Source: a virus (taxonomy: Duplodnaviria > Caudoviricetes). From it: a DNA stretch of 64,000 nucleotides. Positions 684 to 31,010 of the stretch are shown here, one piece after another. Each line of letters opens with the position of its first letter. Position 1 is the stretch's first letter. The translations under genes were made by a program, and so were the position numbers. The notes under the pieces are model-generated. The model saw nothing but the letters and a program-made list of their open reading frames with translations, was not told the DNA's origin and did not search any database. Where the stretch lies: IMG/VR virus record IMGVR_UViG_2706796482_000001, positions 1-64,000 of that record, one strand, 5' to 3'.

Positions 684-774
684 TTTATTCGGACATGACG
701 GACAAATCGTTGCCGATATTGGTAGTCATCATGTTAGTTAGGCTAAGTAAGGTGTCCGGGCCGGACATTGAAAG

Positions 775-853
775 GTCCCTGGGGAGAGGCCGACCTTCCT
801 CTAATTAAGCCCTTGCCAGAATGACTGATAGGGCCCCCAGGGACACACTTTAT
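775..853 (-). ncRNA. Candidate small structured RNA (three-way junction)
   Basis: 10-bp stem 775-784/835-844 enclosing two hairpins; TTGACA-N18-TAACAT promoter at 860-889; no convincing ORF. Confidence 0.4.
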
Positions 854-896
854 ACTTCTATGTTAGCAAGGGTCTAACACCTTGTCAACATCACTT

Positions 897-1079
897 TCAG
901 TAAGCACTGAACGGAATGACCACCTGCGTCCCATCCTCGTTCCTCAGAGTTGAGTCATACGCACAGACAGGAGTCTCGACATCATCGACGTTGAAGAATC
1001 CGATAGCCTTGCGAGCGAAACAAATCTCGCAGGTCTCGTCTTCATCCTTCTCAAGGTACCTTACCAGTGCTCCATCCAT
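897..1079 (-). CDS. Hypothetical protein (CxxC), probably leaderless
   Basis: 60-aa ORF starting 6 nt after the TAGACT -10 at 1086-1091. Confidence 0.75.
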   Translation of the reverse strand: MDGALVRYLEKDEDETCEICFARKAIGFFNVDDVETPVCAYDSTLRNEDGTQVVIPFSAY

Positions 1080-1085
1080 ATATAG

Positions 1086-1114
1086 AGTCTAGCAGTACAA
1101 GGAGGAGCTGTCTA
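1086..1114 (-). promoter_or_regulatory. sigma70/HrdB-type promoter TAGACA-N17-TAGACT, representative of about 18 array promoters
   Basis: Similar -10 elements at 1496, 2674, 3286, 4426, 4496, 5340, 5839, 6400, 6872, 7116, 7506, 7986, 8405, 8853, 9441, 9877, 10461. Confidence 0.8.
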
Positions 1115-1158
1115 GCCACCGGGCCGATTGTCCGGGTCGGACCCCGAAGGGCCGAGCG

Positions 1159-1467
1159 TCAGAAATCAGATTCACCCATCAGGCTGTAGAACTCCTCCCC
1201 CATTTCGGCAATGGCCTCAGCCATCCAAAGAGTCCGCTCCTTCCGACGAATCTCACGACGGACCAGAGGCCCCTTTTCACCCTCATCGTCCCACTTGGTT
1301 ACGATGTGGCTGTGAGCACTGACACCAGAGTTTTTGGTTTTGTTGTACCCACAGCCACTCTTGGAGCGCCCGGTACCAGGAACAGGAATCCCCTTTTCCT
1401 TCAAAGCAAGCTCACGAGCAATGACCTGGGAGACACAGCCGTTGAAGGTGTCAGCAGGAATCAGCAT
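1159..1467 (-). CDS. Hypothetical protein
   Basis: ATG at 1467 (MLIPAD) with GAAAGAGG RBS, downstream of the promoter at 1496. Confidence 0.75.
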   Translation of the reverse strand: MLIPADTFNGCVSQVIARELALKEKGIPVPGTGRSKSGCGYNKTKNSGVSAHSHIVTKWDDEGEKGPLVRREIRRKERTLWMAEAIAEMGEEFYSLMGESDF

Positions 1468-1601
1468 GGATACCTCTTTCGTTCGTTGTAGATATAGCCT
1501 AGCAGACTGCAAGGGCTCTGTCTAGCCACTGGCCGATTGTCCGCCCCCGCCAGAAATCCCCCAAACCCTTCCGGGCCTAGGGGACTCTGACGTTTCCTGG
1601 A

Positions 1602-2615
1602 TTAGCTGGCCAGGGCCAGAACCGCCTTACGGATGCGGTTCTTCTCAGCGTTGACCACCGGGTCGAAACCGCTGGCAGCGATGAACAGGTTGTCCACGTT
1701 GCCACCACGCGGCATCCGGTACCAGTCGATACGCTCGGTCAGCGCGTTGAGCGCACCCGCAGCCGTACCGGCCAGAGACTGAGTGGTCTTGGGACCGTCG
1801 CCCGTGTCGGTGAAGATGCCCATCAGGATGTCACGCTTTGACTCCCACTTGACCATGGACCCCTTGACATCCTTCTCGGGCTTGGGGTACAGGTCCTGAA
1901 TCAGGGTGTCGAACTTGTCCTTCGTGACGGACACCTCGAACAGAGAGTTCATCTCACGCTCGAACTCATCCGCGTAGGCGAAGGTGATGTTCAGCGCCTC
2001 ACGGGCAGCAGCCATGCGACCCTCGATGGTCTGCGTGTGGCGCATCTTGAACTGTTGCTTCACACCGTTACGGAGTGCGAAGTTCAGCGTGTTCTGACAC
2101 ACGACACGAACCGGGGTGATGCTTGCCTGTACTGCGACAGACCCGTCATGCGACGTGTTGACCAGAAGGTACAGGTTGGTCACGTCGTCGTCACCGACCT
2201 TGATTTCCCGTCCGATGGACAGGGAACCGAAGACGACACGACCGTCACGGATGGAACCAGCGGTCTCCCACGTGCCACCACCCGCGAGGATGCCGTCACC
2301 GAAGCCGAACAGCTCCTCATTCTGGACGACCTTGTACCGCTCGCCCACGGTGGCCAGAACGTCATTCCGGCCGGTGAAGGGGTTGGTACGAACGACCATG
2401 TGAGGCTCAGTCACGAAGTCGTAGTTGTCCGAAATCATCCCGAGGACATCCTTGACCGACTCCAGACGCACATCCCAGCCCGAAAGGTGGGCCAGGTTCA
2501 GCATCTCGGAAGTGGTCAGCTCTCCCTCGAACACGGTTCCGAGGTTGTGCCACGCGGGCTCGCTGCGAGTGGCGAACGCGACCTGACCCTTGGAACCAAT
2601 CTCAAGACCGTGCAT
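1602..2615 (-). CDS. DUF932 family (TIGR03299-like phage/plasmid) protein
   Basis: PAWHNLG, Y..VQN.E.F, ETAGSI..GR.VF, LL.NTSHDGS and TPVRVVCQNTL motifs; GGAGG RBS before MHGLEIG. Confidence 0.85.
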   Translation of the reverse strand: MHGLEIGSKGQVAFATRSEPAWHNLGTVFEGELTTSEMLNLAHLSGWDVRLESVKDVLGMISDNYDFVTEPHMVVRTNPFTGRNDVLATVGERYKVVQNEELFGFGDGILAGGGTWETAGSIRDGRVVFGSLSIGREIKVGDDDVTNLYLLVNTSHDGSVAVQASITPVRVVCQNTLNFALRNGVKQQFKMRHTQTIEGRMAAAREALNITFAYADEFEREMNSLFEVSVTKDKFDTLIQDLYPKPEKDVKGSMVKWESKRDILMGIFTDTGDGPKTTQSLAGTAAGALNALTERIDWYRMPRGGNVDNLFIAASGFDPVVNAEKNRIRKAVLALAS

Positions 2616-2759
2616 TTTTGCCTCCATAGGCAGAGTTGGTTTAGGGCCGGTTTCCCTGCCCTTCGATGTCTCTAGTCTACAGGAAGACAAGGGGTGGTGT
2701 CTACCCATGCTGCGTGTCTATAATGTCCGTTTTGTTCCGGCCGCCCCGGACACACGAAA

Positions 2760-2777
2760 GCCCCTCCGAAGAGGGGC
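2760..2777 (-). terminator. UUCG-tetraloop hairpin, representative of the array terminators
   Basis: GCCCCTC-TTCG-GAGGGGC on the minus strand after the gene at 2799; similar hairpins next to most boxes. Confidence 0.65.
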
Positions 2778-2798
2778 AGTGTGCGAGTCTTGTTAGAC

Positions 2799-3239
2799 TC
2801 AGTAGGCGGCGTCCAGGCAGGAACGCTCCCAGTTCGCCAGGTACATGCCGTCCAGCTTGGCGATGTACTCGTCCACGATGTCCTTCGTGTCCTTGAGACC
2901 GAGACCCGTCTTGTTGCGCAGCTCCTTGATGCACTGAATCTTCTTGTGGCTGCCGACCTCTCGGACGACCTCCTTGACCAGCTCACGCGCGTTGTCCTTG
3001 ACCATCTTCTCGATGCCCCGGAGACGTGCCAGCTCGAAGTTCGTGGGGGCCTCGGTGTCCGTCTTGCCCGCCTCGTAGCCCCGCTTGTAGGCGTCCGCGT
3101 AGGTGTTGTTCTCCACCTGGATGACGCGCTCGGAGTGGAGGTCCATCAGCACCTGCGCGATGAACATCGCCTTCTTGAGGCCGATGCTGACGTTGTTGTT
3201 GTTGAGGACGGCCAGGATGCGAGCGGTGTCGAACGACAT
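2799..3239 (-). CDS. Protein with a C-terminal ribosomal L7/L12 CTD-like domain
   Basis: KIQCIKELRNKTGLGLKDTKDIVD resembles the bL12 motif KIxVIKxVRxxTGLGLKEAKxLVE. Confidence 0.75.
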   Translation of the reverse strand: MSFDTARILAVLNNNNVSIGLKKAMFIAQVLMDLHSERVIQVENNTYADAYKRGYEAGKTDTEAPTNFELARLRGIEKMVKDNARELVKEVVREVGSHKKIQCIKELRNKTGLGLKDTKDIVDEYIAKLDGMYLANWERSCLDAAY

Positions 3240-3373
3240 TTGAGTCTCCGTTTCTTAGGGGGTCCGTCCCCCTTTCGATGTACTAAGTCTACAGGACATG
3301 TGAGGCAGATACAAGCCCGAAGCCAAAGTGTCCGGGCCCGACACGGGCCCCGAAAGTCAAGGGCCCGGTAGGG

Positions 3374-3709
3374 TTAGGGGTTCGTGTGTCCCCTCTTGAG
3401 TAGTATCTGTTCGATAACGAATTTGGAATCCATTACACGATTGAATTCCTCGTCAGACCGACTTTCCTTTCTGCCTGCCCATGCATTGAACAGGCTGATA
3501 GCGAACTGAAAGAACGCGTCCTGTACAGGCTCAGGGTAGGTAGAAACGAGATAGGCGAATGCATGGAAGTCGAATGAACGCTTATCGAATTCATCGACCA
3601 GCTTATTCGCCAGACGCTCATAGGATGTCGGTCGTGGATTTACGAGTCTCGCACCCTCATACATGTCAGGTACGATTAGGCTTGTTTGTTTGAAGGGACT
3701 ACGCGCCAC
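3374..3709 (-). CDS. Hypothetical protein
   Basis: GTG start with GGAGAGG RBS, overlapping the upstream stop. Confidence 0.65.
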   Translation of the reverse strand: MARSPFKQTSLIVPDMYEGARLVNPRPTSYERLANKLVDEFDKRSFDFHAFAYLVSTYPEPVQDAFFQFAISLFNAWAGRKESRSDEEFNRVMDSKFVIEQILLKRGHTNP

Positions 3710-3866
3710 CCTCTCCCCCAAAGTCCTGAGTTGTGCCGTAGCCGTCTGATACGCTCACAGACACGCCCAGCACCTTTGCAATGAACTCAGCCGTAGCTGT
3801 TGCAAAGGGCCAGGCGCTGTCGTGTGCGTCATCATCAGGCGTGTCGATTTCGATGATGACTGACAT
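3699..3866 (-). CDS. Hypothetical protein (55 aa, MSVIIEIDTP...)
   Basis: Translated manually; fills the gap between co-oriented genes. Confidence 0.6.
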   Translation of the reverse strand: MSVIIEIDTPDDDAHDSAWPFATATAEFIAKVLGVSVSVSDGYGTTQDFGGEGGA

Positions 3867-3875
3867 GTCTATATC

Positions 3876-4397
3876 CTATCGGGTACGGACCTCAACGTCC
3901 ATCCCCAGCACCACCGGGCTCCCGCAAGAGCAGTGGGACAGGGAGTAACCGCACTTACACACCTCACGCTCCGAGAGGATGAGACGCTTGCCCCGGTACC
4001 AAGCGGTGTACTCGGTACGGTGCGAACGGGTGGGAGCAGCGTGCGGACGAACGTCCTTACCGGTCACCTTGACGTGAACACCGGGCGCAGCGGGCTTGAC
4101 TTCCGGGTTCGCCTTACGGTAGGCGTCCAGAACCTCAGCCGACAGGCGGCCACGGGTGTTGACGGTCATGCCAACCGAAGCGGCCCACGCTCGCACGGTC
4201 TTGGCATCGAACTGACCAGCCTTGGGAGCGGCCTTGACAGCCGCACGCTTGACCGGAGCGGCAGCGTCAGAGAAGACCATGCCCTTGCCCTCGGCCTCAG
4301 CGATGGCAGCGTAAGCCGCAGCGCTCATCCGACCACGGGCATCCTTGGCCAGGCCCAGAGAGACAGCGTACGCGCGACGGGTCATGTTCTCGGTCAT
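3876..4397 (-). CDS. Lsr2-like DNA-binding protein with two RGR motifs and a Cys-rich C-terminus
   Basis: VRAWAASVGMTVNTRGRLSAEVLDAY is an Lsr2 C-terminal domain; second copy RAYAVSLGLAKDARGRMSAAAYAA. Confidence 0.85.
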   Translation of the reverse strand: MTENMTRRAYAVSLGLAKDARGRMSAAAYAAIAEAEGKGMVFSDAAAPVKRAAVKAAPKAGQFDAKTVRAWAASVGMTVNTRGRLSAEVLDAYRKANPEVKPAAPGVHVKVTGKDVRPHAAPTRSHRTEYTAWYRGKRLILSEREVCKCGYSLSHCSCGSPVVLGMDVEVRTR

Positions 4398-4577
4398 TTG
4401 GGGTTCCTTCCCTCGGTGTGTACTCAGTCTATCGGATTGAAGGCGGAGAGGCAAGCCCCGGTGCAGAGGTTGGTTTCCCTCCCCTTCATGTCTTTAGTCT
4501 ACAGGACGTAAGCCATCTGTGTCTACACCTAAATGTCCGATTTGCCCGTTGTCCGCCCCGGCCCGAAGGCCCTAGCG

Positions 4578-5312
4578 TCAAGCCTTTCGACGCTTAGGAA
4601 CCTTGGACGCGAAACGAATGTCAGCCTTACCAAAGATGCAAAGGCCACATGTCACACATGCGCCACCATCCTTAGTGATAAGGGGAATGCGCTTGGCATT
4701 CTCAGGGCAGATAGCGCCAGGCTTACCAGTTTCGGCAAGCATGAATTCCTTACCCTGTTCGTGTGTTTCTGCCAGATAGGCCAGACGAACAAAGGGGTAA
4801 ATCTCCTGAGTGCCCAACGCAGCCTCTTTGTTCTCACTGTCTACACTCAGATAAACAGAGAGATTGGAGACATTTTCCAGATACGCCACGAACCCAAAGG
4901 AACGTGTGTAAATCCAGAATTGCACATCAGGGAATGCCTTGCACGTTTCCGCAAGGGCATACGCATAGTCAGAGGAAAAGATATCCCCATCTGCGTGCCA
5001 GCGGAATACCTTACTGACGTTGTGCTTTTCGCACTCATTGACGAATTCGGCAATCATGTCAGTGAGCATCGAAATCATCTCACTGATTGTTGCCTTACGC
5101 ATCAATTCCCAATTGTGCAGAGCAAGGTCTCGGAATGCCGGATATTGCTTTTCCAGCTTACCGGCATAGCAGACGGTCTCACACACACCGGTCGCACCAG
5201 GGCAGGAATACGCCTTACCACTGGGCAGGGAGAATGCGTTTTTGATGAGAGAGGCAGTGCCAGCACCGTTTGCACGATTGGCAGTCTTACGGTCATGCGA
5301 GCGCTTGAGCAT
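4578..5312 (-). CDS. GP88-like protein, putative Fe-S or radical-SAM-related
   Basis: FSLPSG..CPGATGVCETVCYA and FRWHADGDIF motifs; C-terminal CxxCxxC. Confidence 0.65.
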   Translation of the reverse strand: MLKRSHDRKTANRANGAGTASLIKNAFSLPSGKAYSCPGATGVCETVCYAGKLEKQYPAFRDLALHNWELMRKATISEMISMLTDMIAEFVNECEKHNVSKVFRWHADGDIFSSDYAYALAETCKAFPDVQFWIYTRSFGFVAYLENVSNLSVYLSVDSENKEAALGTQEIYPFVRLAYLAETHEQGKEFMLAETGKPGAICPENAKRIPLITKDGGACVTCGLCIFGKADIRFASKVPKRRKA

Positions 5313-5423
5313 GGCAGTCCTTCCGTTTGACGTAAGTCGAGTCTATCAGAACTAGGCTACGTAAACAACCCCTCAAAATGTCCTATATGTCTGTCCGGGG
5401 CGGACGCCCCGAAGGGCTAGCCG

Positions 5424-5537
5424 TTAATGATTCTCAGGATGACAACAATTCTTGCCATCACAGTCACAGGGCATGTCATGTGCTCCGAAATCACAGCACA
5501 AACACAATTCCTCGTCATTGATTTCATCAGGCTGCAT
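5424..5537 (-). CDS. Small Cys-rich protein (37 aa)
   Basis: MQPDEINDEELCLCCDFGAHDMPCDCDGKNCCHPENH with GGAGGAG RBS. Confidence 0.6.
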   Translation of the reverse strand: MQPDEINDEELCLCCDFGAHDMPCDCDGKNCCHPENH

Positions 5538-5832
5538 TACGCTCCTCCGAGCTGTAGGGCAATTCCGTGTTACGAACAACAGTGCCAAGAGAGACAGCGT
5601 TGATGGTCTTGTGACCAAGAATCCAAGCCATAACCACACGGTGCTGACCATTGTACACGGTGCCATTGTGAAAGTTGATAGGCATTTGAATTCCGTCCCT
5701 TTCACAGGACTCAATGAATTCATCGCTCATCTCAAAGAAAAGCTGAGTGAAGAGGTCCATGGTGCTCTGTCCGTCCTCGCGGTCTGCGAAGTCGGCACCG
5801 GCAACAATCTTGGCTACACTCAGCGTCTTCAT
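5527..5832 (-). CDS. ParB/Srx N-terminal-like domain protein, leaderless
   Basis: GIQMPI...NGQHRV motif; ATG 6 nt after the -10. Confidence 0.7.
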   Translation of the reverse strand: MKTLSVAKIVAGADFADREDGQSTMDLFTQLFFEMSDEFIESCERDGIQMPINFHNGTVYNGQHRVVMAWILGHKTINAVSLGTVVRNTELPYSSEERNAA

Positions 5833-5921
5833 GCTATGAGTCTAACAGAGTCAGCAGTCATGCACAACCCCTTTTTGAAAGTGTCCGGGACGGCCAAAGG
5901 GCCCCCGAAGGGGCCCGGTGG

Positions 5922-6062
5922 TCAGAGGAACATCGAGACAAGGGCGAGACCGACGATGCCACCCATCACGAAAGGCATGACGAGGTTTTCCATCAGGTCG
6001 CTCTTGATGTTGATGTAATGCGTGTAGATGTAGAAGTGAAGCTGCATGAGGAAGTACGTCAT
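5922..6062 (-). CDS. Small membrane protein (46 aa)
   Basis: Manual translation; hydrophobic C-terminus VMPFVMGGIVGLALVSMFL; GGAG RBS. Confidence 0.55.
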   Translation of the reverse strand: MTYFLMQLHFYIYTHYINIKSDLMENLVMPFVMGGIVGLALVSMFL

Positions 6063-6070
6063 TACCACTC

Positions 6071-6373
6071 CTAGAAGAGTTCGGGACCAGATTCACCAAG
6101 GTCATCCATCCAGTCCTCGGTGAATTCGATGAATTCCACATTCAACAGCCATGCGATAAGAACTCGGTGATGGCCATTGAAGACGGTGTTCGAATCCGTC
6201 ATGTAGAGAATAGGGTCGAGAATGCCCTTTGAACAAGATTCGGTGAACTCAGGGTTTCCCTCAAAGAGGTCATCGAACTTGCGCTCAAACATCTCCCAAG
6301 TAGAGACGCCCCATGCCTCAGCATCATTGAAGATAGCCGACTCAATCAGCTTCGCAACAGATACCTTGGCCAT
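6071..6373 (-). CDS. ParB/Srx N-terminal-like domain protein, paralog of 5527-5832
   Basis: GILDPI...NGHHRV motif; AAGGAGG RBS. Confidence 0.7.
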   Translation of the reverse strand: MAKVSVAKLIESAIFNDAEAWGVSTWEMFERKFDDLFEGNPEFTESCSKGILDPILYMTDSNTVFNGHHRVLIAWLLNVEFIEFTEDWMDDLGESGPELF

Positions 6374-6485
6374 GTCGTCCTCCTTGGCTTGATAGTAAGA
6401 GTCTACCCTAGCCACCGGGCCGATGTCAACACATCTGAAAATTGTCCGGGGCGGCCAAAAGGGGCCCCGAAGGGCCCCTAGTGGA

Positions 6486-6758
6486 TTAGTCCTCGCTGGT
6501 GTCCTTCTGGCTTACCAGCTTCGCACGACCGAGCAGAGAGGCGTCAGCCGCCTTCCACTTCTTGACCGGCTTGCCGACGCGCACGCGGGGGAAGTTCGCC
6601 AGGATGGCACGAGCACGGGTCTCGTCGGCCTCCAGGATGTCGAACCGCTGGTAGGGAAGGATGTTGGACGTGGCACCGAACTCGATGTCCACTCCCTGGA
6701 CAATCATGGCCACACGGAGGGAGAGGGCGTCACGCTGAGGGACGATACCGGCAATCAT
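6486..6758 (-). CDS. Hypothetical protein
   Basis: ORF with AGGAG RBS. Confidence 0.7.
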   Translation of the reverse strand: MIAGIVPQRDALSLRVAMIVQGVDIEFGATSNILPYQRFDILEADETRARAILANFPRVRVGKPVKKWKAADASLLGRAKLVSQKDTSED

Positions 6759-6887
6759 GTGCACTCCTGTGCTAGAAGTAAGCTGGGGTATTCAGTTATC
6801 AGAGACTTTGGCAGGAAGGGAAAAACCTCACGTTGCGAGGCCCTGTGGCCTGTCCCCTTGTGCTTAGCTAGAGTCTAGCAGCCGAAC

Positions 6888-7070
6888 CTAGTTGCAGTCA
6901 ACCAGGTACTCGGGCTCGTCGTCCTCGGAGACGGTCCAGATGTCCGACAGCCAGCCCTTACGGATGACACCGGCCGTCACGAACTTGTGCGGCTCAGCGG
7001 ACTCACGAACCGCGTCCGCGTGCTCCTCTTCGGAGATGATGCTGTAACCCTCGGGAATCTCGAACGTCAT
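6888..7070 (-). CDS. Hypothetical acidic protein
   Basis: 60-aa ORF after the promoter at 7116. Confidence 0.7.
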   Translation of the reverse strand: MTFEIPEGYSIISEEEHADAVRESAEPHKFVTAGVIRKGWLSDIWTVSEDDEPEYLVDCN

Positions 7071-7196
7071 GACTACCCCTTTCGTTGGGAGGCTTCCCTC
7101 CCTTTCGATGTTCTAAGTCTACATGAGCCATCGGACAGAGGCAACACTAGATGTGCACTACATTTTGTCCGGGCCGGACCCCGAAGGGCCAGGCAG

Positions 7197-7478
7197 TCAC
7201 TTACTGATAACAGCCCGAAACTTGCCATTCAAACCACGAACGACATACTTCTGGCCGTTCTTCCAGCTCTCTACCTTGATAGTGATACACGGTTCACCAA
7301 GCCTGTTTTCCATGCGAATTCCATAGTTGACATGACTCTGGAGCTTCAACATGCGAATGTAAGTTCCCTTGTCACGCTTGCGTCGGGCAAGCTTCATGTT
7401 GTATGCGATATCACGTCGAGAGAATTGCAGAGTGCCCTTACGACCAGTAGTACCAGTAACAACAACGTAGTTCGACAA
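7197..7478 (-). CDS. Hypothetical basic protein
   Basis: TTG start with GGAGG RBS; C-terminus resembles 8073-8351. Confidence 0.7.
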   Translation of the reverse strand: MSNYVVVTGTTGRKGTLQFSRRDIAYNMKLARRKRDKGTYIRMLKLQSHVNYGIRMENRLGEPCITIKVESWKNGQKYVVRGLNGKFRAVISK

Positions 7479-7572
7479 GGTTCCTCCGTCGTTTGCGTTG
7501 AAACGACTCTATCATGACTGATGGACTTGTGCAAGATGTCCGGGGCGGACACGCCCCCGAAGGGGCGCACCG

Positions 7573-7728
7573 TCAGTCTCCCATGTCGTCAAGGTGAGCG
7601 TCTGGAGCGGGCTCGAACTCAAGGAAGGTGTCTTCGAAAATCACCATCCATGAGTAACCCTCACGATTGTCCGGGTTGCACTCGCCACGGTGCATATCGC
7701 CCATGGCAGCACCACACCTGATGCACAT
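7573..7728 (-). CDS. Hypothetical protein (51 aa, MCIRCGAAMGD...)
   Basis: Manual translation; TGATG coupling to the upstream gene. Confidence 0.6.
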   Translation of the reverse strand: MCIRCGAAMGDMHRGECNPDNREGYSWMVIFEDTFLEFEPAPDAHLDDMGD

Positions 7729-7940
7729 CAGGTCAGGCTCCAGGGGGCGACGACGAACAGCTCCACGCGGTCCGTGTTGATGCTCAGACGAGCACCGTTC
7801 CTGTCCGTCATGACGAACAGACCCTCACGCCAGACGCTGTCGTTCCATGCCGTCGTCAGCTCATCGACAGACGTGTTTTCCAGGTAGGCCACGAGAGTGT
7901 CCTTGCGACCGTGAAAGTAGAGGCTGACCTTGACACCCAT
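7728..7940 (-). CDS. Hypothetical protein
   Basis: ORF with GAGGAG RBS. Confidence 0.7.
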   Translation of the reverse strand: MGVKVSLYFHGRKDTLVAYLENTSVDELTTAWNDSVWREGLFVMTDRNGARLSINTDRVELFVVAPWSLT

Positions 7941-8072
7941 GACACAACTCCTCTTCCGGGAGAACTTCTCCCTTTCGATGCTCTAACTCTACAGCATGTG
8001 GGGAGCAGATACAACCCCAATTTGAAAGTGTCCGGGCCCGACACGGGCCCCGAAGGGCCCGGTGGGAAGGTG

Positions 8073-8351
8073 TTACTTCTTGGCCTTGGCGCGCTTGTTG
8101 CTGTGGTTGCCGTTCATCAGGGCCGTGAAGTCCAGCATGATGTTCTGCTTGAAGTTGGTCGCTCCGTGGAACTTGCCGTCCTGGTCACGGATGACGATGC
8201 GGACCTCGGTGGAGTCGCTGCCCGGAGTGGTCTTCCAGGTCTCCAGACGGATGCTGTAGACGGACTTGGAGCCCTTGACCTTGAAGCCCTCGGAGATGGT
8301 GACGGAGGAGACGATGTTGTGGTTGACGCCCTTGGCGAGAGAAACGGCCAT
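8073..8351 (-). CDS. Hypothetical protein
   Basis: GAGGAG RBS; strongly GC3-biased codons. Confidence 0.8.
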   Translation of the reverse strand: MAVSLAKGVNHNIVSSVTISEGFKVKGSKSVYSIRLETWKTTPGSDSTEVRIVIRDQDGKFHGATNFKQNIMLDFTALMNGNHSNKRAKAKK

Positions 8352-8496
8352 TTTAAGCTCCTCGGTGTCTGCTAGGGGTTTCTTTCCCCCTTGCTGATAG
8401 CTAAAGTCTACACGACTCCGGAGACAAGTACAAGCCCTGATTTTATGTCCGTTTTATCCGTCCGGGCCGGACAAGGGGCCCGGAGGCCCCAAGTCG

Positions 8497-8823
8497 CTAG
8501 TCTGCCAGGATGGAAGCCAGACGCTCACGCTGTGCACGGTCATGCGCACCGGAACGACTCGCGTACTCCTGGAACTCCGACACGGTGTCGATGGTGAGAT
8601 ATCCGTTTTCGTCCAGCTTGGCCACACGCACGGTGTAACGCCTGTCGTAGTCGTCGTTCCTCTCCGAGGAGACAAAGAACATCTTGTCTCCGTCGATGTT
8701 GCTGTAGCAGATGTCCGAAATGCGCGACTTCCACCAACGCATGGTGTCAGCCGAAAAGAAGTGGTTGCCCTGGTCCTTGGCGATGGCCTTGGCGTCCTCG
8801 ATGCTGAACAGAACCTTACGCAT
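8497..8823 (-). CDS. Hypothetical protein
   Basis: Start MRKVLFS with GAGGA RBS. Confidence 0.75.
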   Translation of the reverse strand: MRKVLFSIEDAKAIAKDQGNHFFSADTMRWWKSRISDICYSNIDGDKMFFVSSERNDDYDRRYTVRVAKLDENGYLTIDTVSEFQEYASRSGAHDRAQRERLASILAD

Positions 8824-8938
8824 TTGGGGTTCCTCTCCCTCGGTGTAAGACGAGTCTATCAGAGACAAGGGACATGCACAACACCTACCGGGCATTTTTG
8901 AAAGTGTCCGGCCCCGACAGGGCCCGAAGGCCCCTTTG

Positions 8939-9262
8939 TCAGGTGAGCTGAGCCAGAAGAGAACTGATTTCCTGGCGGAGTTCGGACTGAGGCCGATAGC
9001 CTCGCTCGTTCTTCAACTCACGCTCGAAATAGGCACGAAGTTCGGTCTTGTTGTACGGACCGTGTGCCTCGTCGGTGTAGTTGATGTTCTCGAAGGGCGA
9101 CGGGCAGGAGCAACCGGAGTCACTGGCCACGTAGTACCGTCCTCGGGTCTCCTTCCACACCTGAGTGATGTTGAACTGATAGGGCTCGTCGTCCCAGTCG
9201 AATCCTCCGACATAGGCCAGGTCATCCAGCTTCGTGCGCTCGGGCTTCGAAAGGTTGGTCAT
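8939..9262 (-). CDS. Hypothetical protein
   Basis: GAGGAGG RBS; DSGCSCPSP motif. Confidence 0.75.
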   Translation of the reverse strand: MTNLSKPERTKLDDLAYVGGFDWDDEPYQFNITQVWKETRGRYYVASDSGCSCPSPFENINYTDEAHGPYNKTELRAYFERELKNERGYRPQSELRQEISSLLAQLT

Positions 9263-9271
9263 TACGCCTCC

Positions 9272-9415
9272 TCAGATGTCTTTACGCTGAACCTTACCAC
9301 ACTTGGAGCACTGGCGCACCTGAATCAGCGCCTTCCAGGTACCGAGTCTGGGGAACAGAGGGGAATCGAACGTTCCCACCATCTGCTTCCAGTCGGACCA
9401 CTTGTGGAAACACAT
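9272..9415 (-). CDS. Small Zn-binding-like protein (47 aa)
   Basis: MCFHKW...CSKCG with GGAGG RBS. Confidence 0.6.
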   Translation of the reverse strand: MCFHKWSDWKQMVGTFDSPLFPRLGTWKALIQVRQCSKCGKVQRKDI

Positions 9416-9538
9416 CCTGTCCTCCGTTTTCGTTAGCTCTAGTCTACAGGACGGATTTTTGAGTCGCAACCCCAAAGTCTGGTTTTTTAGTCGCAGATTT
9501 TTAGTCCGGGGCGGACAGGGCCCCGAAGGGCCCAAATC

Positions 9539-9853
9539 CTACTCCCACGGACGGTAGTCGCTCCAGTCGGCACCCTCACGGTTTTCGATGAGGATTTCCA
9601 CCGTGTCGCCCAGACGGTGATTCACGCTGTACAGACTCCTGTGAGAGCCCTGATAGCGCCTTTGCGCCTTGGCCCACGTGACCAGCTTCTCAGCCTGTTT
9701 GGCCGAACGGCAGGGCCATGCTTCGATGTTCTCTCCGTAGTTGAACCACCATCCACCCTCTTCCGACCCTCCACAGGCTCGGTCGATAAGGTAGATGTTC
9801 ACCCAGTGCTTATTACGACGACGCTGACCCATACGGAGCGACTTCTTCGCCAT
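9539..9853 (-). CDS. Hypothetical protein
   Basis: AAGGAGG RBS; promoter at 9877. Confidence 0.75.
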   Translation of the reverse strand: MAKKSLRMGQRRRNKHWVNIYLIDRACGGSEEGGWWFNYGENIEAWPCRSAKQAEKLVTWAKAQRRYQGSHRSLYSVNHRLGDTVEILIENREGADWSDYRPWE

Positions 9854-9966
9854 TTTTCCTCCTTGGTGATGACCTAAGTCTAACAGAAGCCTAGGACATC
9901 TACAACATGTCTACCAGGATATTTTCTCATTTAGGCATGTCCGGGTCGGACAAAAAATTCGCCTAC

Positions 9967-10027
9967 AAATTCACCCCTCTTTTCTAAGGAATTCTAGGCG
10001 AAAATCCTTGAAAAGAGGGGTGAATTT
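9967..10027. repeat. Perfect 18-bp inverted repeat (long hairpin)
   Basis: AAATTCACCCCTCTTTTC 9967-9984 pairs with GAAAAGAGGGGTGAATTT 10010-10027. Confidence 0.85.
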
Positions 10028-10044
10028 TTTCTCCAATTATTTTT

Positions 10045-10269
10045 CTAAGGCTGAATGGCGACTTTTTCGTCTTTTCCTGCCTCACAAAGGCAGTATTTCG
10101 AATGTGTCGCCTCGATTGCAGTAAAACCGCTTTCCTTGTAGCGAGAAAGGAGATTCGCCAAAAGGGAGGAATTGAAAACAGGGGTTTGGCTTTTCAACCC
10201 CTCCCTTTCCAGCAAAAGGGACATGCTGTGGAATCGAACTGTAGGAACAGCCTTTTTCCGAAACATCAT
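10045..10269 (-). CDS. Hypothetical protein (doubtful)
   Basis: 74-aa ORF, but overlaps a large inverted repeat and A/T tracts. Confidence 0.35.
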   Translation of the reverse strand: MMFRKKAVPTVRFHSMSLLLEREGLKSQTPVFNSSLLANLLSRYKESGFTAIEATHSKYCLCEAGKDEKVAIQP

Positions 10270-10284
10270 ATCCCCTTAGTGCGC

Positions 10285-10428
10285 TTAGGCCAGTTCGGAC
10301 ATGTGCGGGTAGGCGTCCCAGTCGAAGCCGTCCACACGGTCCGCATCCTGCACCTCACTGACCGGAACGGTCATGGTGGTGAAGACGCCCGCGTCACGAG
10401 CCTGCTCAAGAAGGTCACGAAGGTCCAT
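10285..10428 (-). CDS. Hypothetical protein (47 aa, MDLRDLLEQ...)
   Basis: Manual translation; GAGG RBS; promoter at 10461. Confidence 0.6.
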   Translation of the reverse strand: MDLRDLLEQARDAGVFTTMTVPVSEVQDADRVDGFDWDAYPHMSELA

Positions 10429-10534
10429 GGTGTGTACTTCCTCTCGCTTGGTGTAGTACCAGTCTACACAAGGGGTAGGGCAGATGCAAGCCCTAGATGT
10501 TCCGGGAATTTTTCGTGCCTATCGTACACGCGCG

Positions 10535-10692
10535 GGGGATATGTGGGGTATGTACGTAAGGCCCCGTAATAGGGCCTATATGTGGTATGTACCCTATGTA
10601 CCATAGGCCCTATATGTACCAGTATGGGTATGTATGTACTGTATGTACCCCTATATCCCATATGTACCCAATGTCCGTTTTGCCCCATATGT
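10535..10692. repeat. Low-complexity TATGTAC(C) repeat tract
   Basis: About 10 imperfect TATGT/TATGTAC units between divergent genes. Confidence 0.75.
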
Positions 10693-10812
10693 CGTCCGGC
10701 CCGGACAGGTCACGGTTAGGTAAAGAAACCAAGATTCTTGCTGAATCAGGGTTGCATGGGGGTCCGGGGCGGGTAGTATGTAGGCATAGCCACTACGGAC
10801 CAGGGAGACGAA

Positions 10813-11250
10813 ATGAACGCCACCACCGCCCACCACTGCAAGTACAACAACGAGACTGCCGTTAACGCCCGTATCCGTAGGCAGGTGCTCGCTACGGTGC
10901 TGTACCTGGCTAGCCTTACGGGTGACAGTGACGGTGCCACGTGGGCCAACTGTGTGGGGTGTGGGGAGCGTGCCCACGTGGGCGGTACCCCTAGGGCTAT
11001 GGACACGTTCAACCTGGGGCACGTGCTGGCAGACGCTGAGGGTGGGATGTACTGCCCTTGCAACCTGTTGCCCCTGTGCAGGCAGTGTAACGCTGACATG
11101 GGTAAGGAGACCCTTACCGATGTGCTCATTCCCACTTACGACAATCGGGAACTCTGGGACGGTAAGCTCATGGCCGACCCTGGCACCGTGGCCGCTAAGC
11201 CTGAAAGCAACCGAGGACGTGCCCGCTGGAACGTCCCTGCGACCGTCTGA
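10813..11250 (+). CDS. HNH endonuclease
   Basis: CVGCG...LGHVLADAEGG...NLLPLCRQCN. Confidence 0.8.
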   Translation: MNATTAHHCKYNNETAVNARIRRQVLATVLYLASLTGDSDGATWANCVGCGERAHVGGTPRAMDTFNLGHVLADAEGGMYCPCNLLPLCRQCNADMGKETLTDVLIPTYDNRELWDGKLMADPGTVAAKPESNRGRARWNVPATV

Positions 11251-11264
11251 GACGCTTTGAATGT

Positions 11265-11292
11265 GCCCCCTAGGGTAGTTTGCCTAGGGGGC
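11265..11292 (+). terminator. Hairpin after the HNH gene
   Basis: GCCCCCTAGG...CCTAGGGGGC. Confidence 0.6.
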
Positions 11293-11481
11293 TATTTCAT
11301 GCCCGCAGACGGGCCCTCAGCCCTTTTGAAAACGGTTTTCAAGGGCCGTGGAACCTTCCCCGGAACCTTCTTGCGACAAGATGTCAAGGGTTATGGGCGC
11401 ACTATCTGAATTGTTACAAAGGTATGCGAAGCATGTATCATACATCACAAAAAATTACTAACATTTCAGAATGCTTTTATG

Positions 11482-11709
11482 TTACTCTTCGGTAGTGTCC
11501 GGCTCGGACAATTCGTCTCCCATATCAAATGACGGAGCAGGCCCGAAAATCTTGCCCAATTGGTGTCCTCTGAAAATGACTTCTGCCTCTTGTGGATTTA
11601 CTCCACGCGCAATGCAGGTCAGCATATCGTAGATACGCATGAGCATGATGGTATTGACGACAGACGAAGTGTCTTCATCGAATACGTCATTCTCTATTTC
11701 ATCACTCAT
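11482..11709 (-). CDS. Hypothetical protein
   Basis: ATGA overlap with thyX. Confidence 0.7.
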   Translation of the reverse strand: MSDEIENDVFDEDTSSVVNTIMLMRIYDMLTCIARGVNPQEAEVIFRGHQLGKIFGPAPSFDMGDELSEPDTTEE

Positions 11710-12955: not shown

Positions 12956-13086
12956 TTCACCAACTTATCGTTGAGTTCGTATATTCGCTTTGCAATCTTG
13001 TCAGTCGGCTTGCCCTGCTTACGCAGTTCGAGATACACAAGTCTCAGCTTACGTATCTCTTCTTGTATCTTGGCCTTGTCGCTCAT
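12952..13086 (-). CDS. Small helical protein (44 aa)
   Basis: Manual translation MSDKAKIQEEIRK...; ATGA coupling. Confidence 0.6.
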   Translation of the reverse strand: MSDKAKIQEEIRKLRLVYLELRKQGKPTDKIAKRIYELNDKLVK

Positions 13087-13403
13087 ACGTTGTTCCTGTC
13101 AAGGATACCGTGTATATAGTCGGTATCTATATCGTCGTAGTTTGATAGCATTCTCAACTCTGAGACTGCCTCTTTGTACCGGCGATTTTCTGACAGATAG
13201 TTGTCAGCATCATTAGCCCACCGGTAGGCATCTTTGCGAAGTGCTAGGAACTTCTCTCGGGGAATCTCTTCATCGGGAAGGATATCAAATTCAACCCATA
13301 CTGAATACTCCTCTTCTGTCATTCCTAGAAACTCGTGGAGTGACATTTCCGTGTCACTGTCATGCCACTTGTCCACGAGGTCTTCTAGTTGTCCTCTGTT
13401 CAT
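13083..13403 (-). CDS. Hypothetical protein
   Basis: 106-aa ORF with LHEFLGMTEEEY motif. Confidence 0.7.
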   Translation of the reverse strand: MNRGQLEDLVDKWHDSDTEMSLHEFLGMTEEEYSVWVEFDILPDEEIPREKFLALRKDAYRWANDADNYLSENRRYKEAVSELRMLSNYDDIDTDYIHGILDRNNV

Positions 13404-13757
13404 GTCACTAGGATGTCACATGTCCTGGGACATTGTCAAGACGTGACACCGCCTTGTTCACCGTATTTACGGGAATGTCCTGTCCCTTGATGTCACAAAT
13501 CTGCTTGTGCAATTCTGTCCTGTCCGTGACACCCTTGGCCCATAGGTCTCTGACCAGGGCGGACACTGATTTGTCCTTGTCCTTGTCATTTGTCACCGGG
13601 ACAGTTTTTGTCACCTTGTCTGTCCTTGGGACATTGTCCGTGACAGGAATGTCCGGTGACGTGACAGAAAATGTCTTGTCCTTCTTTGTCACCTTGTCCG
13701 GCTTTTTGTCCTTTGTCTTCTTTCGCTCCAGAGGTTGTCCCGTGACATTGGTGACAG
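13340..13757. repeat. Dense TGTC(C/A) and (G/T)GACA motif cluster inside coding sequence
   Basis: About 40 TGTC/GACA occurrences in about 420 bp, versus about 3 expected by chance. Confidence 0.85.
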
Positions 13758-14277
13758 ATTCATTCAGTCGGTAGAATACCACATCCTTGAATCCACCGAA
13801 AGTCTTGCCAGGGAAGATAAGCCAGCTAATCTTACCAAACACTGGCATACGCTTCGGAACCAGTCCGTTTGCTCTCATCTCTGAGCGGTGAATGAATCGC
13901 AGGTATAGCTCGAAAAGGATTCCTGCGATAACTGGTGGCGCTCCAAAAAGCACCATTCCAGGGACGCCATAGGATAGCAGCATGGCGTGTTCTACGTTGA
14001 GGTATACAGACGCTCCCACAAAGAGATACGTCGCTAGTTTTGTTGCCAGGCCAGAATCTTCTGTTCTGGCGTACTTGCTGGCAAGGTCAGCAACAAACAA
14101 AGCCGCTCCATCGAATGCCGCGCTGACGCCAATAGCAAGTATCTGTGGGACTCCATAAAACGTAACTGCAAGAGAATAGAGACTCCACCAACTAAGGGCC
14201 AGGGCTACGATGAGAACGACTCCGAATGAGATTGAACCTCGCCAGTCAAGAACTCTCTTGAAATCAGGCTTGTTCAC
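13408..14277 (-). CDS. DUF2637-like (Spd-like) membrane protein with a putative C-terminal HTH
   Basis: About four N-terminal TM helices (SWWSL, AFDGAAL, SVYLNVEH, GAPPVIA); low-complexity linker; helical C-terminal domain. Confidence 0.7.
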   Translation of the reverse strand: MNKPDFKRVLDWRGSISFGVVLIVALALSWWSLYSLAVTFYGVPQILAIGVSAAFDGAALFVADLASKYARTEDSGLATKLATYLFVGASVYLNVEHAMLLSYGVPGMVLFGAPPVIAGILFELYLRFIHRSEMRANGLVPKRMPVFGKISWLIFPGKTFGGFKDVVFYRLNESVTNVTGQPLERKKTKDKKPDKVTKKDKTFSVTSPDIPVTDNVPRTDKVTKTVPVTNDKDKDKSVSALVRDLWAKGVTDRTELHKQICDIKGQDIPVNTVNKAVSRLDNVPGHVTS

Positions 14278-14330: not shown

Positions 14331-14732
14331 TTATTTCGCTGACTCGTTAAACATCCAGAGCCACTTATCGACACCTCGCTTGACTTCAATCAGAACGTCT
14401 TGCGTCGCAAGGTCATCGGTAATGTTCAGTATAGCATTCTGTAGGACGTGGGTCAATCCCCTGAGAGAAGACACCGTTCCGTCAACTACCTGCTGATAAC
14501 TTACTGATTCACCGGACATTTCGTATGCAACCTTGGGCGCAAGATACCATCCATTCGCCCTTGCACGTTCTGCAATGAGGTCAGCGTATTCAGTTATATC
14601 GGAGTGAAGCTCATCCAGCTTCTCATGTAGGAAAAAGAATTCCCTACCCCTGAGATTCCAATGACTCTCCTTGACGACCAAGGAGAGAATCAGAAGCCAT
14701 TCGAGAGCTTCCTCCATCTTTGCTTCTAGCAC
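14331..14732 (-). CDS. dps: Dps/ferritin-like protein
   Basis: HWNLRGREFFFLHEKLDE...DLIAER and DKWLWM ferroxidase motifs. Confidence 0.88.
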   Translation of the reverse strand: MLEAKMEEALEWLLILSLVVKESHWNLRGREFFFLHEKLDELHSDITEYADLIAERARANGWYLAPKVAYEMSGESVSYQQVVDGTVSSLRGLTHVLQNAILNITDDLATQDVLIEVKRGVDKWLWMFNESAK

Positions 14733-29531: not shown

Positions 29532-30527
29532 ATGAGCGATGAGCTAATTGAAAAGGTCATTCGTACCACTGAGGTAGCATCTGGTGGCGGTGGTCTGCTT
29601 AACGCAGAACAGTCCAACCGTTTTATCGATTACATGTGGGAATCCACAGTTCTCGGTAGCCAGGTTCGTACCATCCGTATGAGAGCCGACACAGTTGACA
29701 TTGACAAGCTCGGAATTGGTGAGCGTCTAATGAGAGTAGCCACTGAGGCAGTTGACGACGGTGTAAACGCCGGAGCAACCTTCTCTAAGATTTCTCTTAC
29801 CACCAAGAAGCTTCGTCTAGACTGGGAAATCTCAACCGAGTCCCTTGAAGACAACATCGAGGGTGAGGCCCTTGAGGACCACATTGCACGTCTAATGGCA
29901 ACTCAGGCCGGTAACGACCTTGAGGACGTAGCTATTAACGGTAACACGGCCCTTACAACCGACCCTCTACTTAAGGCATTCGATGGATGGCGTAAGCGCG
30001 CCCTTGCTGGTGGTCACGTAATTGACCACGGAGGCAACGGCGTAGACCGAAGCGTCTTCAACAAGGCTCTTAAGGCAATGCCACGTAAGTACATGCAGCG
30101 TCGTAACGGCCTTAAGTTCTTCACGGGTTCCAATGTAATCCAGGACTACCTATTCAGCCTACAGAACACATCTGCTGACTATGTTACCCCAGAGGCTATG
30201 GCCGCTGCCGGTATCAACAGTGGAGTTCGTACTGAGGGTCCAGCCGGTTTCACAACTGGTAATGCATTCGGTGTACCTGTACAGGAGGTTCCTCTATTCG
30301 AGGAGACCCTTGATGGAGACTACTCAGGTGCAGCAGGCGACCACGCCGATGTATGGCTAACATTCCCTAACAACATGCTATGGGGTGTAAAGCGTGAGAT
30401 TCAGGTCTTCCGTGAGTTCAAGCCTAAGAAGGACACCACGGAGTACACCATGTACTGCCGTGTAGGTACTCAGATTGAGAACGCTGACGCATTCGTTGTC
30501 GTCAAGAACGTCAAGATTTCAGCCTAA
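29532..30527 (+). CDS. Major capsid protein (HK97 fold)
   Basis: GGLLNAEQSNRFI and EISTESLEDNIEG; follows the protease; followed by a terminator. Confidence 0.9.
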   Translation: MSDELIEKVIRTTEVASGGGGLLNAEQSNRFIDYMWESTVLGSQVRTIRMRADTVDIDKLGIGERLMRVATEAVDDGVNAGATFSKISLTTKKLRLDWEISTESLEDNIEGEALEDHIARLMATQAGNDLEDVAINGNTALTTDPLLKAFDGWRKRALAGGHVIDHGGNGVDRSVFNKALKAMPRKYMQRRNGLKFFTGSNVIQDYLFSLQNTSADYVTPEAMAAAGINSGVRTEGPAGFTTGNAFGVPVQEVPLFEETLDGDYSGAAGDHADVWLTFPNNMLWGVKREIQVFREFKPKKDTTEYTMYCRVGTQIENADAFVVVKNVKISA

Positions 30528-30550
30528 TCAAACTGAAACAATTTAATAGC

Positions 30551-30574
30551 GAAAGAGGGCTTCGGCCCTCTTTC
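30551..30574 (+). terminator. Intrinsic terminator
   Basis: GAAAGAGGGC-TTCG-GCCCTCTTTC. Confidence 0.8.
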
Positions 30575-30608
30575 TGCTTTTGTGCTACAATCGATGTATG
30601 GAGGATGT

Positions 30609-31010
30609 ATGAGTTTTGACAAGATGAAGGTCGGTGAACTTCGCCAGATTGCGGATGACTTCGCGGTGGACATTGACCCCAAGGACAATAAGGAAGTTGT
30701 GATTTCCAAGCTGGTGGAGAACGGTGTTGACTGGTCTTACTATCAGAAGCAGGTTGGTGAGGCAGAAGAAGCCCCGGCACCAGTAGTCGCAGCGACTCCA
30801 AAGTTTGATGAGCCTGCAAATGCAGAAGACGAGCAGAAGGTTCTTCTCCGCATGACTCGCGCCAATGGCACCTTTGAGGTAAGAGGCGTGAAGTTCACGA
30901 GAGACAATCCTTATGCGATTGTTCGAGAGCGTGATGCAGACTTCATCCTGGAAAAGTACGAAGGATTCAGAATTGCTTCCCCTAGGGAAGTCAAGGAATT
31001 CTACGGTTGA
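30609..31010 (+). CDS. Hypothetical head-associated protein
   Basis: GGAGG RBS; N-terminal MKVGELRQIA helical motif. Confidence 0.7.
   Translation: MSFDKMKVGELRQIADDFAVDIDPKDNKEVVISKLVENGVDWSYYQKQVGEAEEAPAPVVAATPKFDEPANAEDEQKVLLRMTRANGTFEVRGVKFTRDNPYAIVRERDADFILEKYEGFRIASPREVKEFYG

Follow-up and report, generated by a model that had tools for sequence, protein, structure and literature searches.

The nearest experimental precedent for the locus described here is SpdA2 of the Streptomyces plasmid pIJ101, which specifically binds palindromes inside its own coding sequence; these sites impose an SRDD/E peptide motif, they have been removed experimentally by synonymous recoding, and the associated phenotype is segregational stability (Thoma et al. 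2014, PMC4170104). The locus itself is the gene for a DUF2637 membrane protein of 289 amino acids, with about 40 copies of a short word in and just beyond its 3' half. It lies in a linear phage genome of 133,531 bp with an exact 11,438-bp direct terminal repeat (IMG/VR virus record IMGVR_UViG_2706796482_000001), of which the first 64 kb are referred to here as the window. As in the case of SpdA2 and its sps sites, a protein of a Streptomyces mobile element would have its binding sites in its own gene. SpdA2, however, is small (135 amino acids) and soluble, whereas the protein considered here is a four-helix membrane protein, and a sequence relation between the two is not established. In addition, sps is a 12-bp palindrome found in two to three copies in or just upstream of the gene and conserved across plasmids, whereas the words of the phage gene number about 40, are 5-6 bp long and non-palindromic, and are specific to each lineage.

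A comparison can also be made with SpdB2 of plasmid pSVH1, a four-helix membrane protein that binds DNA non-specifically and acts with TraB in the spd operon; SpdB2 homologues have been reported on actinophages, and phiC31 is said to carry one (Tiffert 2007; Thoma 2015, PMC4447253). The phage protein resembles SpdB2 in its four predicted transmembrane helices, with both ends predicted to be inside the cell. While SpdB2 is encoded beside traB, the DUF2637 gene is 62 kb away from the TraB-like gene of this phage, and a plasmid homologue (L053) adjoins a TraB-like gene but has no array. The likeness to spread (Spd) functions that an initial annotation of this DNA had put forward holds as a functional analogy only, and membership in the SpdB2 or SpdA families is not established; phiC31 gives no PF10935 (DUF2637) match.

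A word array inside a DUF2637 gene

The 418 nt at 13340-13757 contain 29 TGTC and 11 GACA tetramers, against 4.5 expected at the window-wide rate. The initial annotation, made from the letters alone, had given about 40, which our count reproduces, and about 3 expected, which is of the right order. This is the densest spot for these tetramers in the 133.5-kb genome, the runner-up having 25, and all other 400-nt bins of the window hold at most 12. TGTC is followed by C in 20 and by A in 18 of 41 sites, so the earlier description of the words as mostly TGTCC and TGTCA is correct; on the other strand the word reads [G/T]GACA, with 20 copies of GGACA and 14 of GTGACA. The words are mostly non-palindromic and 5-6 bp long. 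In terms of the encoded protein, they span the final part of the juxtamembrane helices, followed by the linker and the C-terminal domain, and they continue over the stop codon into the first 21 codons of the gene downstream. They occur on both strands and in several codon phases, as had been noted, namely in three frames (on the coding strand, GACA in frames 0, 1 and 2, and TGTC in frames 1 and 2), and about 70% of them read GACA on the coding (minus) strand. Six sites lie past the stop codon (13342-13407), which bears out the reported extension into the next gene; taken alone, this tail is not significant (5 observed in the first 22 codons versus 2.5 +/- 1.1). The first 173 codons of the DUF2637 gene, by comparison, contain no TGTC or GACA, and the segment coding for the transmembrane helices is likewise free of them.

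The last 117 codons contain 34 words. Synonymous shuffling, which keeps the protein sequence, yields 22.1 +/- 2.0 (maximum 28 in 5000 trials), and resampling from the codon usage of the window yields 11.6 +/- 2.5 (maximum 20 in 5000 trials). That is, the excess survives the codon-shuffled controls that had been named as a possible refutation of the earlier reading. These controls argue that selection in the array acts on DNA, and not just on protein. The gene would then illustrate how dozens of putative protein-binding words can be superimposed on a coding region that still encodes a working protein. A 17-nt TTGTCC run is all that Tandem Repeats Finder detects, so the words do not form a tandem repeat. 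DnaA boxes were also considered and rejected: one site alone (TTGTCCACG at 13368) resembles the Streptomyces DnaA box, and A follows TGTCC in 2 of 41 sites.

Over the studied region, the genome is 98.6% identical to that of Streptomyces phage Evy (Samistivirus, cluster BE1), and the 289-residue protein is 98% identical to the Evy and Targaryen proteins; the relatives' copies of the gene are annotated merely as 'membrane protein'. The protein passes the Pfam gathering threshold for DUF2637 (27.3 bits versus a cut-off of 22.8, residues 21-165), and PF10935 is present in all its close homologues. AlphaFold predicts four long, hydrophobic helices at residues 6-39, 45-69, 76-100 and 104-136, in agreement with the roughly four N-terminal transmembrane helices first surmised, and two further helices before the linker. 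Most of the invariant columns in an alignment of 30 homologues fall in the transmembrane region. Positively charged residues are found around the N-terminus and after helix 4, and therefore both ends of the protein are predicted to be cytoplasmic. The linker peptide is rich in VT, DK, DM, SV and GQ, which is the DNA word translated in its various frames. The C-terminus had been described as helical and helix-turn-helix (HTH)-like; a three-helix bundle is indeed predicted with confidence (Table 1), while its likeness to HTH folds extends to weak matches only. These weak structural neighbours, mostly HTH or winged-helix proteins, include the small terminase, transposases, Fur, MecI and Lrp (Z of at most 6; Foldseek E of about 1 or worse). 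Neither for the whole protein nor for its tail alone did Foldseek against the PDB, VIA-align wide or a PDB profile search return a significant match. Helix 3 of the predicted bundle (NTVNKAVSR) is a candidate recognition helix.

Table 1. Positions of the array, the DUF2637 gene and neighbouring features in the window
Feature	Position	Strand	Evidence
Array of 40 [G/T]GACA / TGTC[C/A] words	13342..13756	.	Word counts, codon alignment
DUF2637 membrane-protein gene, 289 amino acids, with C-terminal three-helix domain; homologue of Evy gene 32	13408..14277	-	Open reading frame list, Pfam PF10935 E 4e-6, phrog_10376
Four predicted transmembrane helices, residues 6-136; most conserved part	13870..14262	-	AlphaFold, 30-sequence alignment
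Disordered hypervariable linker, residues 185-231	13585..13725	-	Predicted local distance difference test score (pLDDT) ~31; variable in 30 homologues
C-terminal three-helix bundle, residues 238-278	13444..13566	-	pLDDT ~87 in both models
Downstream gene, 106 amino acids, phrog_12828, function unknown; first codons hold the array tail	13083..13403	-	Open reading frame list, PHROG match
Terminator-like hairpin between Dps/ferritin-like gene and DUF2637 start codon	14298..14323	-	Consensus match only
Terminal-repeat boxes (examples)	753-767, 3329-3343, 7537-7551, 9938-9952, 11496-11510		

Co-variation of the word with the C-terminal helix

The array is conserved among relatives. All Boydwoodruffvirinae examined hold 26-37 copies at the same place, despite a linker that varies in length and sequence, and codon resampling gives z values of 4.5-9.4 in 12 homologues with 34-72% G+C. 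In every lineage the word is found in two to three frames and on either strand. A codon alignment shows the conserved peptide VVTNVTG written with TGTCAC in BE1 phages and with GTGACA, the opposite orientation, in BE2. A full-text literature search on DUF2637 returned no paper describing a word array in the gene.

In most relatives GACA is constant, and the base 5' of it is lineage-specific and tracks helix 3. Samistivirus and Coruscantvirus, with helix 3 NT[VI]NKAVSRL, have G or T at this position, and Karimacvirus, with NTI[TS]V[AS]LSR, has T in 29-31 of 29-31 words. The temperate phage Kromp (DTVARTRRRI) has G in 18 of 21, its word being CGGACA; integrated satellites (GTINKSLSRM) have A or G; and the satellite MulchRoom (STLNTCIQRY) has C in 20 of 21, its word being CGACA. 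In MiniFlayer, also a satellite, helix and word both differ from these, the word being the unrelated TGCGA(A), with 22 copies versus 0.5 expected. The initial annotation had suggested that homologues be checked for a word co-varying with their own HTH; the word does shift with the C-terminal helix of the same protein. Because it does so across lineages, the most economical reading is that the protein binds the array in its own gene.

MindFlayer/MiniFlayer and MulchMansion/MulchRoom are the two published helper-satellite pairs (PMC10690885). MindFlayer has 30 copies of TGACA, and its satellite MiniFlayer has none, with 17 of TGCGA; MulchMansion has 18 GGACA and 19 TGACA, and its satellite MulchRoom has 20 CGACA. 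Each satellite's word is absent from its helper; that is, the words are orthogonal.

A second array is found at genome positions 79,781-80,050 (L014:3782-4052), with 25 [G/T]GACA words in a PhoD-like phosphatase gene versus 7.2 +/- 2.0 upon codon resampling. It lies within the folded PhoD-like domain, the 5' base being G in 12 and T in 8 words, and it is kept in Samisti12 and absent in Tomas. Karimac has no PhoD-like gene, yet its syntenic intergenic DNA (L060:4200-4370) contains 19 words, 19 of 19 TGACA, about 150 nt from an AT-rich stretch. Since this is a non-coding array of the lineage's own word, arrays are independent of coding context. The same lineage-specific reader appears to act at the two loci. 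Separately, the DUF3307 gene contains a mini-array of eight TGTC in one orientation (genome 78,772-78,856; L014:2773-2857), the whole reading frame having 13 words versus 3.9 +/- 1.6. Both the second array and this mini-array are located 1.6-2.9 kb downstream of a gene for a TraB/FtsK-like ATPase (genome 75,279-77,162; L014:1-1163), which is outside the window. This ATPase is membrane-anchored, with two hydrophobic helices, Walker motifs and a winged-helix-like C-terminus, and its best named match is the plasmid transfer protein TraB; such a protein is unusual for a virulent phage.

Scans with the family alignment retrieved mostly close relatives, namely 17 loci in IMG/VR and 1 locus in species genomes. 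More distant DUF2637 genes have CGGACCA, TGACCGG or GAGACC (34 copies) at the same position; they reside in a Streptomyces chromosome, in modules of the type IstB-like / WhiB / DUF2637 / NikA-MobC / relaxase, and on a 94-kb plasmid. Family members without an array also exist (L020, L045, L046, L050 and L053). In one Streptomyces sp. genome (G001), two paralogous modules (L051, L052) carry an array-bearing DUF2637 gene, in the order unknown gene, IstB/DnaC-like ATPase, (WhiB), DUF2637 with array, NikA/MobC-like protein and MobA/VirD2-like relaxase; here the array is directly upstream of the relaxosome genes, where oriT would be expected. MulchRoom-like satellites of about 12 kb and 56-58% G+C (L015, L016 and L017, from Streptomyces chromosomes and an assembly) are integrated in Streptomyces chromosomes. 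Their genes encode an integrase, HTH regulators, an Lsr2-like protein, DUF2637 with a GACA array, terminase, portal, scaffold and capsid, and one such integrated satellite adjoins a glutamine synthetase gene.

Proposed membrane docking and the alternatives

We consider it rather probable that the array provides about 40 docking sites for the HTH-like tail of the protein encoded by the same gene, and so holds phage DNA at the membrane. The N-terminal four-helix domain would sit in the cytoplasmic membrane with the tail facing the cytoplasm, and binding of the tail to the array would keep the DNA there. The sites would be in the 3' half of the gene because the disordered linker may tolerate almost any peptide, so that the word can be written into it. 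If the membrane protein is inserted during transcription and translation, the emerging tail would meet its own gene first and load in cis, and the resulting tether might serve as a hub for replication, segregation or packaging; positioning of the DNA and its spread along hyphae, as the initial annotation had proposed, are further candidate roles. With a private word for each mobile element, a helper phage and a satellite residing together could each mark its own DNA and avoid cross-talk, in the manner of partition and iteron systems. The comparison of words and helices strongly suggests self-binding. Several observations weigh against this proposal, however. The core of the word measures just 4-6 bp, sequence and fold searches gave the tail no significant match (Pfam, PDB profile, Foldseek E of at least 1, Z of at most 6), and pair-distance counts in the array reveal no helical phasing, just the 3-nt coding period. 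Muntaha and Circinus (BK cluster) have a similar tail, yet a scan confined to the gene found no array of any word there. Lastly, the unexplained bias of the words towards the sense strand, 70-95% across lineages, could mean a DNA-tracking reader or a role at the level of RNA.

Retention of DNA at the membrane or pole by an anchored or partnered DNA-binding protein is known from p16.7 of phi29 and from Noc-NBS, RacA-ram and Spo0J-parS of Bacillus subtilis; a parS site lies inside the spo0J gene itself, and the binding of p16.7 is non-specific. Noc, RacA and ParB recognise 14-16-bp palindromes that are dispersed across the replicon, whereas here a dense array of 5-bp words is concentrated in one gene, and the protein folds are unrelated. 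A ParB/parS system in particular needs the N-terminal (CTPase) domain of ParB and a 16-bp palindromic parS. Neither is found here: the 289-residue protein has no ParB-family match in Pfam, NCBIfam or PHROG, and the array contains no 16-bp parS-type palindrome.

More tentatively, and with less confidence than we place in docking at this one locus, we envisage a self-addressed system, common to the whole family, in which DUF2637-tail proteins work together with the arrays in their genes. It would extend over the mobile elements of actinobacteria, namely lytic and temperate phages, phage satellites, plasmids and relaxase-bearing islands. In each element, a private word of 5-7 bp would be written 20-40 times into the part of the gene that codes for the linker; loading in cis during co-translational membrane insertion would generate a membrane-bound nucleoprotein patch acting as a centromere or replication hub; and orthogonal words would separate helpers from replicase-less satellites, in a manner equivalent to incompatibility groups. 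This would give a testable function to DUF2637, a family widespread on Streptomyces phages, satellites, plasmids and mobilisable islands. It also points to the only module common to BE phages and their satellites, the latter reported to lack replicases, and so to a likely key to the marking or multiplication of satellite DNA. The words and their readers would constitute a natural orthogonal set ([G/T]GACA, TGACA, CGACA, RGACA, TGCGAA, GAGACC, CGGACCA) that could be developed into Streptomyces tools, and they caution against naive recoding of array-bearing genes.

That the array has no function at the DNA level, being a by-product of a low-complexity linker (codon-pair slippage of DK, VT and ET), of codon bias or of an overlapping antisense gene, is highly improbable. 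The amino-acid sequence alone does raise the expectation from a base rate of about 4 to about 12, simple peptide repeats occur in some homologues (ET in L054, DT in Kromp), and a 113-codon antisense frame (13433-13774, + strand) is open across the array and long in several relatives. The observed count nonetheless exceeds all 5000 codon shuffles; the words fall in several frames, on both strands, inside the folded C-terminal domain and beyond the stop codon; and arrays are also found in the non-coding DNA of Karimac and in the folded PhoD-like domain, where the excess is 25 versus 7.2 +/- 2.0. The antisense frame, moreover, is not conserved, being broken in Coruscant, Mildred21, Bmoc and L018, and is probably a side effect of the codon set that the word imposes. 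The data on frame, strand, non-coding DNA and conservation thus exclude slippage, codon bias and an antisense gene, and the controls largely refute this explanation. An origin of replication of the lambda type is unlikely, but less so. In lambda, the soluble initiator O has its binding sites, four 19-bp iterons next to an AT-rich element, within its own gene, where this codes for a flexible interdomain linker. By analogy, the DUF2637 protein would be a membrane-bound initiator or origin organiser with its iterons in the linker-coding part of its gene, a special case of self-binding in which the function is specified. BE-phage satellites have been reported to lack any replicase or primase (PMC10690885), and yet they retain the DUF2637 gene and a private array. 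In integrated satellites this gene fills the slot of the replication module of other satellites, the orthogonal words resemble incompatibility avoidance, and the intergenic array of Karimac is close to an AT-rich stretch. The likeness to ori-lambda, though, is one of layout, namely the location of sites in the linker-coding region. The phage has about 40 short words and a membrane protein, no part of which resembles a known initiator; neither array of this genome has an AT-rich unwinding element beside it (maximum AT 0.62 in 40-nt windows); and mobilisable elements with array-bearing DUF2637 genes have a separate IstB/DnaC-like module.

Recognition of the array by a protein other than that encoded by the gene seems to us improbable. 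The candidates are the phage TraB/FtsK-like translocase, acting through its C-terminal winged helix on a clt-like locus, and a host factor such as WhiA, whose reported motif is GACAC. The TraB-like ATPase is membrane-anchored, the second arrays are downstream of its gene, and the sense-strand bias recalls the polar words of translocases. The clt loci with their TraB recognition repeats (GACCCGGA in pSVH1) are also alike in having a clustered, short, element-specific word in or beside transfer genes, read by the C-terminal domain of a membrane-anchored protein. However, clt comprises a few 8-bp copies read by an FtsK-like pump, whereas here the word co-varies with the DUF2637 tail and arrays occur in pump-less elements: the TraB-like protein of the phage has no homologue in Kromp, the satellites MulchRoom and MiniFlayer, or plasmid NZ_CP107756, all of which carry arrays. 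Furthermore, this phage and Karimac share 83% identity over the last 100 residues of the TraB-like protein, yet use different words (G/T versus T only). A shared host reader does not explain lineage-private words or the orthogonality of helper and satellite, and the WhiA-like GACAC is disfavoured in this phage (4 of 41 sites).

Equally improbable, in our view, is a single regulatory system made up of the array and the palindromic boxes of the terminal repeat, the 'shut-off' idea of the initial annotation, in which the protein, held in the membrane, would regulate transcription through the boxes as operators at early cassettes, and the array would be a sink or an autoregulatory roadblock. The boxes do exist: TGTCCGGGNCSGAC-type palindromes give 31 strand-matches where 1.5 are expected, spread over about 17-19 places from 753 to 11510. 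The small leftward cassettes of the terminal repeat all share one layout, with a GC hairpin, a GC-rich palindrome, a promoter-like site (TTGnnn-N17-TAGACT) and a ribosome-binding site, and each box is an inverted pair of GGACA half-sites between the terminator hairpin and the promoter-like -35/-10. Temperate Kromp, in addition, has cognate palindromes, TGTCCGCG(N0-2)CGCGGACA, in its repressor/cro-like switch region (30,228-30,760; L022/L010), between the divergent HTH gene 37 and the immunity repressor gene 38; there are about 8 versus 0.6 expected, and they are built from CGGACA, the word of the array in its DUF2637 gene 82. The proposed link between array and boxes nevertheless fails the co-variation test. 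In this phage the palindrome is TGTCCGG-N-CCGGACA, with a GTCCGG-N-CCGGAC core also in Evy; Karimac has G(A/G)CCGCCCCGG(T/C)C as the equivalent box, and Coruscant has TGGCGCC-C-GGCGCCA, in 12 copies. Both lack GACA, although the Karimac and Coruscant arrays use this word. The examined DNA of Karimac, Coruscant, MulchRoom and MiniFlayer contains no cognate palindromes outside the arrays, and the box geometry TGTC-N7-GACA occurs just once in the array. The box palindrome is genus-specific and looks like the operator of a fast-evolving early regulator, and the TGTCC common to array and boxes in this phage is probably a coincidence or a lineage-specific extra.

Neighbouring genes and sites

Immediately upstream of the DUF2637 gene is a Dps/ferritin-like gene (14331-14732, minus strand; Pfam Ferritin, E 2e-9), and the pairing of the two is conserved in all BE relatives examined. 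The terminator-like hairpin between them leaves no space for a separate promoter, and thus expression of the DUF2637 gene would be by read-through.

Within the terminal repeat, a AAAWCGGACATWW-form word is found upstream of several promoters (2723, 4533, 8445 and 10671, minus strand). It is also present in intergenic regions of Evy, Karimac and Coruscant, and is thus conserved across three genera; because it is kept even in Karimac, whose array word is TGACA, it is probably a separate signal. Exactly at the inner boundary of the repeat (11,438), the AT content of positions 11401-11490 is among the highest in the genome (0.70-0.72 in 60 nt), and just inside this boundary lies an HNH endonuclease gene (10813-11250, + strand).

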